32,000 bases of DNA from assembly GCA_021650915.1 (NCBI GenBank), contig CP091279.1:1620001-1652000 (forward strand). Direction: 5' to 3'. Shown piece after piece: positions 8,397-11,318 of this stretch. The stretch is from Candidatus Brocadia sp. (GTDB taxonomy: Bacteria > Planctomycetota > Brocadiia > Brocadiales > Brocadiaceae). Numbering within the stretch: the first letter of the stretch is position 1; every line of letters starts with the position of its first letter. A program made the translations under genes and the position numbers. The notes beneath the pieces are model-generated. The model did no database searches. It worked only from the letters and a program-made list of their open reading frames with translations, and was not told where the DNA came from.

Positions 8397-11318
8397 TCAG
8401 GGGTTCACTGACCTGGTGAGGCGGATGCCAACGCGGTTGAAGCGGTTGTCAGGCGCGTTGCTGCTCCGGTTAGCCGACCGGCAGTTCTGCGCAACGCTGG
8501 TCCAACTGCCACCGCGCATCACGCGGGAGGAGCCCTTCTCAGGACCTTTCGGTTCCTCTTTAGGACTCGATTTATAGTAATCCGCATCATACCAATCAGC
8601 GCACCACTCATAAACATTACCATGCATGTTAGCCAGTCCAAGGGAATTGAGGTTTTCCGCGCCGGCGTGGGGATTGACTTCATCTACGGCATGGGCATGC
8701 GGTTTATCGGCCTCGCCGAACCAGGCATGGCTAGTCAAATCTTCCGGGTTGTCGCCAAAATAATATTGGGGGCGCCTGGCACTTTCCCCACCCCTGGCTG
8801 CATACTCCCACTCAGCCTCTGTAGGAAGGCGTGCATTCAGCCAGAGGGCACAATAATAGGCTTCAAACCAAGTGTTGCTCACAGCGGGGTGACTGTCTCC
8901 TCCATAATTTGGATACTTTTTTCCTAAGGGGAAATTTGCCAGCATGCGGTTTGTCACCGGATGTTTCGCCATAAGAAAGCTATCAACTTTTACCTGATGG
9001 GCCGGTCGTTCATTATCTCCATGGTTATCATCCCCCATGAGGAAGGTACCGCCCTGCACCCCTATCCATTCTAAGCAATTAGCCGGATCATTTAAAAATG
9101 CCCTCTGGCGCTCTGCGGCATGTTCCAGATCAAGGAGTTCATAGAGTATGCCTCCGGGTTCAAGGGGTTTAAGCTCCATGTTCGTCAGCAGGATCTGGGC
9201 GCGATAGATCACCTCGCAGTCGCGTTCACCGCATTCCAACAACATGATGCGCAGCGTTTCCTGCACAAGGTTTTGACGTTCGGCTTCAGACACCAGGGGG
9301 AGGGATTGCTCCAAAGAATCGATCAGCAGCAGCTTGCCCTGATTGCCCTGCTCTTGTTCAATCAGTGGCTGAATGATTTCATCAACCGACGCCTTGACTT
9401 CCGTGGTTACCCGCAGCGCAAGTGGCCGGTTTATCGTCCACAATCCGTTAATCAGCGCTTTAACGTCATCATCCTGGACCAGCAGTCCGGCATAAAGCCT
9501 GACTACTTCCTCCCAATCCGGATTGGCTGCATGCCTGATGACAAATTCCTGCTTCTTTTCCAGCAACGCCAGGGCCGTGAAATACTCCCACAGGGATCGA
9601 TGGACAAAGGTGTACCCTTCCTTCAGGCGTTGAATCAGCCCGGTTTCCCGCTGCAGCAGGTCAAGAACTTCATCTGTTTTTCCCGGTAAGGCAGCGGTTG
9701 GATGGCTCCGGCCAATAACCTTCACATGATCGGGGTCGAAATCAGCCTCCTGCCACAAAAAAAATTTTAAGGAGATATCCTTTAATAAACCAAGTGCCTC
9801 CTCATACGTAATGTGAACCTTTCCCGTCTGTCTTTGATCCGTATCATAGGGACGATCCAGCAAAGAGCGGGTGCAGTTTGCGTAAAGCTGACTACGGCGT
9901 TCAATCAGTTCTGCCTTGTCATCGATTCCAAAAGTAAAGCAGATCATACTCAGCAGGAAGGGGTTGGCTGCCAGGGCGCGGATGCGCGGTTTGTCCCCGA
10001 AGGTTTTCCACAAGACATCGATTTTATCCGTGTCGTCTTTAAACCATTTGCCCAGGTATTCTTTCATCACAAGATCGTCCAACGGCAGTAAATCCAGGGG
10101 ACGGTATCCCGGATAGTCTTCTGATTTGAGCCCAATAGGACGGGAAGTGACGATTATCCTGCAGCGAGGATATTTCTTCGCAAACGCATCCATGATACCG
10201 GCAATTTTTTTATTTGTCTCCGGGTCTTCAATTTCATCAAGGCCATCCAGGAACAGCGCCATCGGCTGTTCCAGAAAACGCCTTTTATCACAGAGAACAT
10301 CGAGCATTTCAGGACTGTCACTATCCTCATTGATCTGCTGTTTTACAAACTCATCCAGGGTATTTTTGGCGCAACAAAAATCACGCAATCGCAAATAAAC
10401 CGGTATCAGTTCCTTTTTACCTTCTGCTCCAAGGGTGGCAAATCGGTGGACAAGATAGCGCATCAATGTCGTCTTGCCCCCTCCCGGCAGTCCACGCACC
10501 AGAAACCGGGGTTCCTTAAATCCATCAATAAACAGGTCTTCTATCCCCAGTGGCTCGACATCACTACCTGTGGCAACTCTCTGCCAGTCACTTAAATACA
10601 GCGGCACAAAGCCCTCGTCAATAGAGGCCATGTGATCGAACGTCTCTCCGCTCTTGCCTGCATGCTGGCACTGACTGCCGAAGAAATACATGGATGAAAA
10701 TTTCAACTGAATCCGTTTGCAGTAGTTGCGCATGAAGTCCTGAGTTTCGCTTCTCTGCAGACTCCAGCCCGCCCCTGCTCCGGTAAGTTTATACTCATGA
10801 CGGATGAAGTTTGACATATGTTGCCTTGCGAGCCGCTCGAACTGAGACACATCCTGAAACGTCCCGTACAAACCTTCTTTGGGAAATTCATTCCGGAATC
10901 GTATGACAAGCCCAAACTGCTCATGCTCTTCCGTAGTCTGCGGAAAGAACGGAGTTTCTTTGAAGTACATCATTATCTGAGGGCGGTTGTTTTGCCGCCA
11001 GCCCCTGATGGCCGTGCGGATCTCGTGCCCCGTCCCTGATTGTGCATCGCGGGTGGGCGTACCAAAGCGCTTCCAAAATATACCAAGCAGAATATCGCAG
11101 TCTTCAATACGTAAGATAGGATCAATGAGTCCCTGAGGGCCATCGGCGTGAAACCCAGGATAGGCATCGGTCTCCCAACGGCTTAATTCCAGGAGTAAAT
11201 TGCGATCGGCGGCGACACCGCGGTTTAACTCGTCAATGACAGACTCCATCACCTTCCGTTCTTCTTTTACATCTCCCGGCGACGCAAGCACAATTCGAAG
11301 ACACTGCTTTGCCTTCAT
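8397..11318 (-). CDS. NLR-like STAND NTPase, 973 aa: DUF4062-like N-terminal domain, NACHT, helical linker, and a C-terminal FGE/SUMF1-type (sulfatase-modifying-factor-like) domain
   Basis: aa 8-125: ..[38 protein letters not shown]..MMYFK (DUF4062-like pattern). Walker A is [10 protein letters not shown] (aa 276-285) and Walker B is ALFLDGLDE (aa 354-362). aa 749-970: ..GGTFLMGDD...[16 protein letters not shown]....RGGSW...CRSANR....RVGIRL (FGE-sulfatase family). Confidence 0.9.
   Translation of the reverse strand: [973 protein letters not shown]

Follow-up and report, generated by a model that had tools for sequence, protein, structure and literature searches.

We identified an NLR-like gene in a 32,000-nucleotide stretch of DNA from Candidatus Brocadia (the window, to which all coordinates refer). 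The gene lies on the minus strand (8397..11318) and is a complete ORF with an ATG start that encodes a protein of 973 amino acids. Its parts are a DUF4062/NIR head, a NACHT NTPase and a C-terminal domain of the FGE/C-type-lectin (CLec) fold. The protein is 99% identical to OQZ00821.1 of Ca. Brocadia sp. UTAMX2, and the exact 973-aa sequence is found on 20 public contigs. The 973-codon ORF is uninterrupted in both Brocadia haplotypes. The gene is under purifying selection, with a pN/pS of 0.26 in the comparison with UTAMX2.

The gene is monocistronic, as the first-pass annotation had described it, being convergent with a radical-SAM gene (6822-8063, plus strand) and divergent from the gene for HU (11808-12101, plus strand). 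The intergenic region on the HU side, given earlier as 490 bp, measures 489 bp (11319..11807). This shared region is the presumed promoter region and contains neither a DGR template nor an RT remnant; the small ORFs called in the equivalent region of UTAMX2 have no Pfam match. Promoter and terminator scans returned counts that were not above those in shuffled sequence. The 3' intergenic region contains two copies of a 45-nt hairpin-containing repeat (8078-8122 and 8323-8367) that are 91% identical to each other and bracket approximately 205 bp missing from UTAMX2. The near-identical UTAMX2 locus has a single copy, so the two copies in the window flank an indel of approximately 245 bp. The same interval (8078..8367) is also the boundary between approximately 94% and approximately 99% identity to UTAMX2. 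The repeats had been described as REP-like, and a repeated, hairpin-containing sequence is indeed present. However, a dispersed REP family was rejected, as the window has just the two copies, which the indel explains. Similarly, the gene is GC-richer (0.511) than the window mean (0.447), but the radical-SAM (0.527), BipA (0.50) and LysRS (0.49) genes are comparable and its GC3 is mid-range. The arguments from repeats and GC content for a foreign origin of the gene fail.

The neighboring genes in Brocadia are housekeeping genes (BipA, HU, radical SAM, LeuA) in a synteny conserved between two Brocadia lineages, and the window shows no defence island around the gene. This placement in housekeeping synteny rather than in a defence island is an observation that speaks against a defence model. 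Several relatives of the protein are located among defence or mobile genes. No conserved partner gene was found among 10 distinct genomic contexts of family members, and the window's 1106-aa ORF of unknown function bears no relation to the protein of approximately 1170 aa, also of unknown function, that adjoins the KSB1 homologues.

Profile searches with Pfam and PADLOC support all three assignments (DUF4062, NACHT and FGE) behind the effector-NTPase-sensor layout that had been read from the sequence. In PADLOC the protein matches no model of a characterised NLR. It matches just the candidate defence system PDC-S60, for which we found no mention in the literature searched. The match to its model PDLC05050 (E=8e-37) covers model positions 3-314 of 906 (aa 5-333), that is, the head and the start of the NACHT domain, and the C-terminus of the PDC-S60 model differs. 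PDLC05051 is also matched (E=0.0011). No Avs model is among the PADLOC matches at E<=1, and the NTPase is NACHT-type.

The head (10794..11318, minus strand; aa 1-175) is predicted to be a TIR-like NADase effector domain. The DUF4062 match of the protein itself spans aa 16-103 (E=0.003) and scores 18.2 bits, or 22.3 bits when only the head is scanned, the cutoff being 24.7. At the level of the family the match is clear, with 19 of 19 family heads scanned matching PF13271/DUF4062 (best E=3.9e-8). A single-sequence search of the head against the PDB returned no match, and with a head profile the sole match was the DUF4062 domain of KpSwz, which is weak (E=0.37). The AlphaFold2 (AF2) model of the head (pLDDT 82, pTM 0.81) has five beta-strands alternating with helices (E5-13 H15-33 E41-49 H65-69 E76-81 H96-110 E114-120 H129-144 E151-154 H157-175), and its betaB-alphaB loop (aa 53-64) is disordered. 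The modelled topology and this loop are consistent with the published TIR-like NIR fold, which combines a parallel beta-sheet of five strands with five helices and a BB loop that has a regulatory role. A Foldseek search of the model against the PDB found generic flavodoxin-like folds only, at TM<0.5, and gave no TIR-specific support. The sub-cutoff DUF4062 score of this protein, the E-value of the KpSwz profile match and these TM values are further observations against a defence model.

The biochemical activity of the head had been considered unknown. However, DUF4062, renamed NIR, was published in 2026 as a TIR-like NADase effector that occurs in Swarozyc, PsAvs2, Vulcan, Vesta, Evangelion and human TEP1. 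The catalytic glutamates are KpSwz E97, Vulcan E98, VstA E103, PsAvs2 E108, Eva01 E87 and TEP1 E1008. The bacterial DUF4062/NIR proteins that have been characterised all act against phages, and NIR genes are enriched near defence genes. In the Brocadia protein, residue E99 (11022..11024, minus strand; codon GAG) aligns with KpSwz E97, the residue mutated in the E97A structure (PDB 10wc). It is intact, it is 100% invariant in both A1 and A2, and it is compatible with the 'E-Y' catalytic motif (E87-Y88 in Evangelion). From this alignment we infer that E99 is the catalytic glutamate of the NADase head. Two residues upstream, the first glutamate of the T-E-x-E motif is replaced by glycine (G97; 11028..11030, minus strand; codon GGG). 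This change is derived, since at least 90% of family members have Glu at the position and UTAMX2 has GAG/Glu. The G97 haplotype also occurs in several assemblies and in a fragment from Ca. B. fulgida. The coincidence with the KpSwz E97 numbering prompted us to consider E97G as a catalytic knock-out, which was rejected because the PDB alignment places the catalytic residue at E99. The substitution could nevertheless impair the NADase. The head is followed by a linker (10524..10793, minus strand; aa 176-265) that has no Pfam match and is the most variable region in the family, with a mean entropy of 1.97 bits.

The NACHT core (10035..10502, minus strand; aa 273-428) matches PF05729 with E=1.5e-12 and 48.1 bits against a cutoff of 26.7, and the protein also matches NPHP3_N in Pfam (E=8.8e-9). 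The Walker A lysine named in the first-pass annotation, K282, is present in the motif GLPGGGKTT (10467-10493). The Walker B/NACHT signature reads DGLDE (D358-E362; 10233-10247) and conforms to the NACHT-specific form, D[GAS]hDE. Both motifs are invariant across 42 family sequences, and the family-invariant residues of the domain are G276, P278, G279, G281, K282, T284, D358, G359, D361, E362 and R393. The region that follows (9084..10034, minus strand; aa 429-745) has no Pfam family. It is well conserved, with family entropies of 0.94-1.03 bits, and presumably forms a winged-helix/helical transducer arm.

The C-terminal domain (8415..9071, minus strand; aa 750-968) matches PF03781 (FGE-sulfatase) with E=9.5e-47, as anticipated from the sequence. 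FGE structures in the PDB are matched with E-values from 1e-20 to 4e-28 (best 6muj, 4e-28), and outside the FGEs the nearest structure is TvpA (2y3c, E=1e-17), a DGR variable protein. The catalytic Cys pair, whose retention had been raised as a check, is lost. In the alignment with the S. coelicolor FGE (FGE segment 'rggsylchdsycnryrvaar') a deletion removes the first Cys and Ala943 stands in place of the second, so that the Cu-binding CxxxxC pair is not kept, and the family consensus has only one Cys in this region. The NCBIfam models for EgtB, SenA, PvdO and GldK score 66-88 bits against cutoffs of 350-500, with only the C-terminal part of the models aligned. These features suggest that the domain is most likely a non-enzymatic ligand-binding receptor. 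An FGE domain in the sensor position is not the departure from repeat sensors that it was first taken to be; it is recognised as the 'FGS antigen-receptor type' of bacterial NACHT/STAND proteins. Such sensors are often hypermutated by diversity-generating retroelements (DGRs). This connection was overlooked in the first-pass annotation, and it explains the kind of sensor found here.

The last 42 residues of the domain (8412..8537, minus strand; aa 928-969) are equivalent to a variable repeat. We regard this segment as a fossil DGR variable region, presumably the ligand-contact surface. Two relatives of the protein (54% and 68% identical) adjoin HRDC-bAvd-RT cassettes with adenine-specific template and variable repeats (TR/VR). 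In the cassette beside one relative (P0048), 16 of 24 TR/VR mismatches are adenine-specific, as are 16 of 17 for the co-target; beside another (P0008) the count is 19 of 21. An RT and template cassette is present in two loci of relatives (L007 and L009), and the Brocadia segment is 75-78% identical to the templates of these loci at the nucleotide level. Family entropy over the 42 residues tracks the adenines of the template. By template codon class it is 3.02, 2.43 and 0.70 bits, the highest value belonging to AAY codons and the lowest to codons that lack A at positions 1-2 (p=1e-5 for AAY versus all other codons). The codons in the window retain a third-base C at 11 of 11 template AAY positions, and mismatches at codon positions 1 and 2 occur at 11 of 28 template adenines versus 6 of 56 other template nucleotides (p=0.003).

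The same segment does not vary within Brocadia. It is identical in all seven cluster members that cover the region, which have 20 variable positions elsewhere, and none of the 27 codon differences from UTAMX2 falls in it. No RVT_1 or bAvd domain occurs among the ORFs of the window. A DGR in the window was considered and rejected, as there is no RT or Avd, no second VR-like copy or VR/TR repeat and no protein remnant. A low-sensitivity scan placed this RT lineage in 15 genomes, none of them from Planctomycetota. The tip of the receptor looks, from its codons, to have been written by a mutagenic retroelement that is now absent from the locus. Given that the RT, Avd and template are missing nearby and that the variable region is invariant, the Brocadia protein is most likely a stand-alone, DGR-less NLR with a frozen, DGR-derived receptor, the surface being fixed because the cassette is absent.

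A role in conflict or defence, as first proposed, is the best of the readings considered. We think it probable, on the combined analysis, that the protein is a cytoplasmic single-gene conflict sensor, most likely acting through abortive infection. NADase activity, activation by oligomerisation, phage sensing and a defence phenotype are extrapolated from characterised relatives to this protein. A ligand derived from an invader, probably a phage protein, would bind the FGE/C-type-lectin-fold receptor and release the protein from autoinhibition. Nucleotide exchange and oligomerisation by the NACHT NTPase (K282; DGLDE) would follow, and the clustered DUF4062/NIR heads could assemble active NADase sites around E99. 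Hydrolysis of NAD+, with ADP-ribose and nicotinamide as the products, would arrest the infected cell. The head behaves as a swappable effector, given the reshuffling of heads and bodies among relatives. Proteins of the NACHT-HEAT, head-FGE and head-TIR-PEGA-FGE types carry the same head. The NACHT-FGE body occurs with other N-termini, namely those annotated as TIR_2 (PF13676; P0073) and PF22736 (P0069) and a divergent DUF4062-type head (P0058). It is possible, as a tentative account of the origin of this gene, that specificity made by a DGR was captured as a germline-fixed innate receptor after loss of the cassette or movement of the gene and was then held by purifying selection in a housekeeping neighborhood, with E97G tuning the NADase towards lower basal toxicity.

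Other explanations have to be set against a defence role. A fixed receptor might instead sense a ligand of the host or community and tune NAD+ or dormancy, making the protein an endogenous signalling NLR that would, for example, recognise kin or competitors or respond to stress within dense anammox granules. The conserved housekeeping synteny in two Brocadia lineages, the lack of a defence island in the window, the invariance of the receptor region across all Brocadia copies under purifying selection and the literature that ties such systems to multicellular or aggregating bacteria would all fit this role. However, the antiphage function of every characterised bacterial DUF4062/NIR protein, the enrichment of NIR genes near defence genes and the placement of relatives in defence or mobile islands and beside DGRs make endogenous signalling rather unlikely. 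It is quite unlikely that the Brocadia copy is an attenuated or decaying relic that has been drifting since the loss of its DGR. The Glu-to-Gly change at position 97, the lack of a DGR in the window and the records from Ca. B. fulgida, which consist only of 241-aa and 347-aa pieces, could be taken as signs of decay, but the contig behind these pieces measures 5.6 kb, and they may be artefacts of assembly or frameshift. Both haplotypes and the 20 contigs carry an unbroken ORF, no change affects E99, Walker A/B or the scaffold residues, and the pN/pS is far from the value of approximately 1 that drift would give.

The fixed state of the receptor could also be questioned, as a DGR elsewhere in the Brocadia genome with a cognate template might still diversify it in trans. 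Trans-acting templates have been reported for FGS-domain DGR targets, the variable-region codons look DGR-written, and the negative results for RT and template cover the window only. An adenine-masked pattern of the variable repeat had no match in the genome and metagenome contigs scanned, where the gene itself was not recovered either. However, continued hypermutation is very unlikely in view of the identical variable region in all seven Brocadia members despite their differences elsewhere, the absence of codon differences from UTAMX2 in it and the lack of Planctomycetota among the genomes of this RT lineage in the low-sensitivity scan. Finally, the strong Pfam match and the source annotation, 'SUMF1/EgtB/PvdO family nonheme iron enzyme', would suggest a genuine enzyme of this type in which the NTPase regulates a formylglycine- or sulfoxide-forming activity. 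The loss of both catalytic cysteines, the low scores with the EgtB, SenA, PvdO and GldK models, the failure to detect an EgtB-type N-terminal domain and the position of TvpA as the closest non-FGE structure make this highly improbable, and the widespread NCBI name misleads for NIR-NACHT-FGE proteins.

The domain parts of the Brocadia NLR and their pairings have already been described, and the protein is a new member only. New in this analysis are E99 as the probable catalytic Glu, the E97G haplotype, the loss of the FGE cysteines, the DGR-linked relatives and the link between family variability and template adenines. In the literature searched, FGE/CLec sensors on bacterial NLRs have been described computationally only; none had been tested as of 2024, nor in the 2026 literature that we searched. 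The NIR-NACHT-FGE family couples such a sensor to an effector of known chemistry, the NIR NADase, which provides loss of NAD+ as a simple read-out. As the family has both DGR-linked and DGR-less forms, it is a tractable system for asking whether retroelement hypermutation programmes bacterial intracellular immune receptors, and it also bears on how hypermutated specificity becomes fixed. If the proposed capture of DGR-made specificity is correct, the family would represent a single NADase-armed antigen receptor in two states, one adaptive-like (DGR-linked) and one innate (frozen).

Kibby et al. (bioRxiv 10.1101/2022.07.19.500537) described bacterial NACHT (bNACHT) proteins whose FGS sensor is 'antigen-receptor-type', and STANDs with FGE-sulfatase sensors were reported more recently (Nature 2026, PMC13581612). 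Like the Brocadia protein, the bNACHT-FGS type has an N-terminal effector, a NACHT domain with D[GAS]hDE and a single C-terminal FGE/FGS domain. The latter is a predicted ligand binder that is DGR-diversified in several cases (10.1101/2022.07.19.500537; PMC13581612). However, the members assayed in these studies carry other C-termini, and the FGS type was classified only. DGR-diversified STAND-CLec targets are known from Thiohalocapsa PB-PSB1 and clade-5 DGRs (PNAS 2024, PMC10907252), where NACHT or nSTAND1 is combined with a C-terminal FGE-type CLec domain that bears the variable repeat. The L007 and L009 loci match this layout of accessory genes, RT, template and one or two STAND-CLec targets, whereas the RT, Avd and template are missing near the Brocadia copy, whose variable region is invariant. 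In addition, the targets in that study have TIR or peptidase heads or uncharacterised N-terminal extensions, and the Brocadia head is DUF4062/NIR.

PsAvs2 and Vulcan (NIR-HEAT) share with the Brocadia protein an N-terminal DUF4062/NIR NADase that has a catalytic Glu and is joined to a sensor, and in both a phage protein triggers NAD+ depletion of the abortive-infection type (bioRxiv 10.64898/2026.09.04.749371). PsAvs2 is built on an Avs-type STAND with TPR repeats, in contrast to the NACHT and FGE/CLec receptor found here. Vulcan has HEAT repeats and no NTPase, whereas the Brocadia protein has a NACHT domain; HEAT-repeat relatives with a Brocadia-type head and NACHT do exist (P0080-P0120). The Swarozyc protein KpSwz shares the motif S-x-T-E-x-E-[FYI]-x-x-A, with its E97 corresponding to E99 (10.64898/2026.05.01.722283; PDB 10wc/11cq/11cv). 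However, KpSwz has two domains (326 residues in the solved chain) and binds the phage portal through a winged-helix auxiliary domain, and it lacks the NTPase and lectin-fold sensor of the Brocadia protein. In human TEP1, an active NADase, and in human NWD1, NWD2 and NPHP3, a DUF4062 head is likewise directly N-terminal to NACHT, and NPHP3_N matches the Brocadia protein. These proteins differ in their WD40 or TPR sensors and extra domains (TROVE, vWA), and they have no FGE domain or DGR. The Brocadia sensor belongs to the fold family of SUMF1/S. coelicolor FGE (6muj/2q17) and TvpA (2y3c). Unlike FGE it lacks the two Cu-binding catalytic cysteines, and it is functionally akin to the TvpA-type binding domains.

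The NLR gene lies at 8397-11318 on the minus strand and encodes a 973-aa protein from an ATG start, exactly as the first-pass annotation had it. A Pfam run upheld the FGE and NACHT assignments made there, with FGE-sulfatase at aa 750-968 (E=9.5e-47) and NACHT at aa 273-428 (E=1.5e-12, 48.1 bits against a 26.7-bit cutoff); NPHP3_N also matches (E=8.8e-9). The proposed DUF4062-like head (aa 16-103, E=0.003) falls below the Pfam cutoff in this protein taken alone (18.2 versus 24.7 bits), but 19/19 relatives' heads match DUF4062 (best E=3.9e-8; window head alone 22.3 bits). The Walker A motif (K282), the Walker B signature DGLDE (358-362), which is NACHT-specific as defined in the literature, and R393 are invariant across 42 family sequences; this anatomy and residue conservation are direct observations. 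The gene is monocistronic, as had been proposed, with a convergent radical-SAM/SPASM gene (6822-8063, plus strand) and a divergent HU gene (11808-12101, plus strand) as neighbors. The source is Candidatus Brocadia, an anammox member of the Planctomycetota. The exact protein sequence is found on 20 public contigs, one of 4.05 Mb, and is 99% identical to OQZ00821.1 from Brocadia sp. UTAMX2.

The activity of the DUF4062 head had been noted as not established, but three 2026 preprints have identified DUF4062 (now named NIR) as a TIR-like NADase. The domain serves as effector in the antiphage systems Swarozyc, PsAvs2, Vulcan, Vesta and Evangelion and has activity in human TEP1 as well; a catalytic glutamate is needed in each case. 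A profile of the 19 heads gave a single, weak sequence match in the PDB (E=0.37), the Swarozyc DUF4062 protein KpSwz (10wc/11cq/11cv), which places KpSwz SFTEKAFDYA opposite the family SGTEHEFRTA. The solved KpSwz construct comprises residues 15-C with an E97A mutation. Given one extra leading residue, the Ala at chain position 84 would be residue 97, which aligns with family position 99; whatever the numbering, this Ala is the sole departure from the family T-E-x-E-[FYI] motif. Position 99 is Glu in 100% of the sequences of both family alignments, and the next residue is hydrophobic or aromatic, in keeping with the catalytic E87-Y88 of Evangelion. The alignment thus points to E99, which is intact, as the catalytic Glu of the window protein, with residue 97 a separate position.

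Residue 97 is Gly in the window protein (GGG, 11028-11030) and Glu in UTAMX2 (GAG). This is the first Glu position of the T-E-x-E motif, and at least 90% of family members have Glu there. The catalytic E97 of KpSwz prompted the idea that the G97 allele is catalytically dead, which was rejected because the catalytic Glu aligns to E99. G97 is no sequencing error; it is part of one of two Brocadia haplotypes, which also occurs in several other assemblies and in a Ca. B. fulgida fragment. The B. fulgida orthologue is annotated on a 5.6-kb contig as separate short proteins, BROFUL_00733 (P0122, 241 aa, carrying the G97 haplotype) and BROFUL_00736 (P0123, 347 aa); either the copy itself is frameshifted or broken, or the assembly is at fault. 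AlphaFold2 modelled aa 1-178 confidently (pLDDT 82, pTM 0.81), as five strands that alternate with helices, with a betaB-alphaB loop (aa 53-64) that is disordered and resembles the loop described for KpSwz. A Foldseek search of this model against the PDB returned generic flavodoxin-like folds only (TM<0.5) and no TIR-specific support.

The full-length architecture is represented by at least 70 database clusters (43-73% identity), with relatives from KSB1, Gammaproteobacteria, Bacteroidia and unclassified MAGs. The same head is also found on NACHT-HEAT proteins and on a more distant NACHT-FGE lineage, and the NACHT-FGE body carries other N-termini, namely a head annotated as TIR_2 (PF13676; P0073), an N-terminus annotated as PF22736 (P0069) and a divergent DUF4062-type head (P0058). 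Such swapping of heads and bodies fits what would be expected of an effector module. A PADLOC check gave a match to the candidate system PDC-S60 (E=8e-37) at model positions 3-314 of 906, which takes in the head and the beginning of NACHT but nothing beyond. No conserved partner gene was found across ten distinct genomic contexts. Three members sit among defence or mobile genes, one near Abi_alpha, PIN, TIR_2, SLATT and ThsB_TIR genes and IS elements (L011), one near integrases (L012) and one beside a serine recombinase (L010). Small toxin-antitoxin-like pairs (DUF4160/DUF2442, DUF2281) occur directly upstream or nearby in KSB1 and Brocadia loci (L003 9703-9969; L006 9423-9974; L001, the UTAMX2 locus, 13830-14352), and may be a coincidence or an island marker.

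The REP-like repeats reported beside the gene amount to two copies of a 45-nt sequence that contains an 8-bp hairpin (8078-8122 and 8323-8367, 91% identical), with no further copies within the window. The UTAMX2 locus has one copy, between the two stop codons; the window therefore carries an indel of ~245 bp with the duplicated sequence on both sides. Identity to UTAMX2 is 99.1-99.8% over 8323-19639 and only ~94% over 2824-8117, and this mosaic switch at the repeat junction (8117/8323) suggests a recombination boundary adjoining the NLR gene. Codon differences from UTAMX2 across 2824-19639 number 1 in BipA, 4 in LarC, 27 in the NLR gene, 62 in radical SAM and 83 in LeuA. The ~205 bp between the repeats (8118-8322) are strain-specific relative to UTAMX2, match nothing elsewhere in the window and contain a terminator-like hairpin on the minus strand (8197-8222). 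Compared with UTAMX2, HU and BipA are separated by an inserted IS66 element (12236-13955; ORF 12269-13690, minus strand). Both this element and the region 5040-6504 are missing from the syntenic UTAMX2 contig and appear to be insertions, specific to this strain, around the NLR locus. Two DDE_Tnp_1 transposase ORFs (201-962 and 5743-6504, both plus strand), of equal length and identical Pfam scores, are apparently copies of one IS. The gene had also been called GC-richer than its neighbors. Its GC of 0.511 does exceed the window mean of 0.447, but radical SAM (0.527), BipA (0.50) and LysRS (0.49) are similar and its GC3 is mid-range.

Two riboswitches were found on the minus strand of the window. 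A c-di-GMP-I riboswitch (27910-28026, 50.3 bits against a gathering score of 35) directly precedes a 1106-aa ORF (24492-27812, minus strand, GC 0.394) which has no Pfam family and would be a c-di-GMP-regulated large protein. Downstream of a c-di-GMP-I-GGC riboswitch (1301-1426, 64.6 bits against 59), the space is filled by the plus-strand transposase at 201-962, and insertion of the IS may have displaced or disrupted the gene that this riboswitch controls.

In the comparative-genomics literature, bacterial NACHT proteins have two kinds of 'antigen-receptor-type' sensor, of which single FGE/FGS domains are one, diversified in several cases by diversity-generating retroelements (DGRs). A 2026 STAND survey lists FGE-sulfatase sensors (PMC13581612), and a 2024 PNAS paper reported that DGRs diversify NACHT/nSTAND1-CLec proteins, sensors then not characterised experimentally (PMC10907252). 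A DGR with HRDC, bAvd and RVT_1 genes lies directly upstream of a family member in 2/10 loci. At L007 (P0048, 54% identical) 16/24 mismatches between template (9640-9767) and variable repeat (12791-12918) fall at template adenines, and at L009 (P0008, 68% identical) 19/21 do (3062-3190 and 6171-6299). The two reverse transcriptases (RTs) are 67% identical. L007 also has an nSTAND1-FGE co-target (16/17 at adenines) and an island of TIR, caspase, CHAT and PIN genes. A 105-aa DUF4062 ORF (4478-4795) precedes this co-target (4810-7710), which appears to have its NIR head split from the NTPase body, as a frameshift or a two-gene version. A scan with only two peptide patterns traced the RT lineage to 15 representative genomes, which span diverse phyla, include no Planctomycetota and nearly all have adjacent FGE targets.

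The same pattern is visible across the family. When the last 42 residues of 36 members are sorted by L007 template codon, entropy is 3.02 bits at AAY (Asn) codons, 2.43 bits at the remaining codons whose first or second base is A and 0.70 bits at codons where neither is (AAY versus all others, Mann-Whitney p=1e-5). The variable positions stand on an invariant scaffold (R935, G936, R947, R951, P956, G964, R966). The window protein (aa 928-969) differs from the L009 template peptide mostly at Asn codons, and at codon positions 1-2 mismatches occur at 11/28 template adenines and 6/56 other sites (Fisher p=0.003). The third-base C is kept at 11/11 L007-template AAY codons (TCC, ACC, AGC, AAC, AAC, AGC, AGC, AAC, AAC, TTC, CGC). 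The DGR cassette itself is absent from the window, which holds no RT or Avd gene among its ORFs, no second VR-like copy and no protein remnants of a cassette.

Drawing the activities and trigger from characterised NIR systems and NLRs, we consider it fairly probable that the protein acts through ligand-induced cell arrest. A cytoplasmic ligand, probably a phage protein, would bind the fixed CLec/FGE surface and relieve NACHT autoinhibition; the NTPase would swap nucleotide and oligomerise, the clustered NIR heads would hydrolyse NAD+ via E99, and the infected cell would arrest. That the protein is instead a true FGE/EgtB-type enzyme is extremely improbable. Aligned with S. coelicolor FGE, the domain has lost the first catalytic Cys to a 3-residue deletion and has Ala943 in place of the second; the FGE fold called in the first-pass annotation is present with its catalytic Cys pair gone. 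The EgtB, SenA, PvdO and GldK equivalog models score 66-88 bits against cutoffs of 350-500, and PDB matches of the domain include the DGR variable protein TvpA (2y3c, E=1e-17). These comparisons argue for a non-enzymatic binding module.

Continued diversification by a DGR acting in trans is very unlikely. The variable region is identical in 7/7 covering Brocadia cluster members of both haplotypes, with 0/27 of the codon differences from UTAMX2, and is not diversifying now. A search of both public collections with the A-masked window sequence gave zero matches and missed the gene itself too, although the pattern does match the window. We regard an attenuated relic as decidedly unlikely, since a gene-wide pN/pS of 0.26 against UTAMX2 (14 synonymous, 13 non-synonymous codon differences) indicates purifying selection rather than decay. 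An endogenous or community-sensing role draws support from the housekeeping synteny and the invariant receptor, and is unlikely next to the phage-sensing NADase reading.

The main value of this protein is as a tractable test case for FGE-type NLR sensors. Every domain and every pairing was known before, with NIR found on NLR-like proteins, FGS combined with NACHT, and STAND-CLec proteins targeted by DGRs. What is new is the explicit NIR-NACHT-FGE family, the DGR pattern in the variable region across that family, a frozen, DGR-less member from an anammox bacterium, the putative mapping of the catalytic Glu to E99 and the lineage-specific E97G change. The head, highly conserved, also occurs without the NTPase, joined to FGE through a coiled-coil/Pro-rich linker in P0084 and P0096 (about 550 aa) and as head-TIR-PEGA-FGE in P0079 (708 aa), sensor-effector fusions that are analogous to Vulcan.
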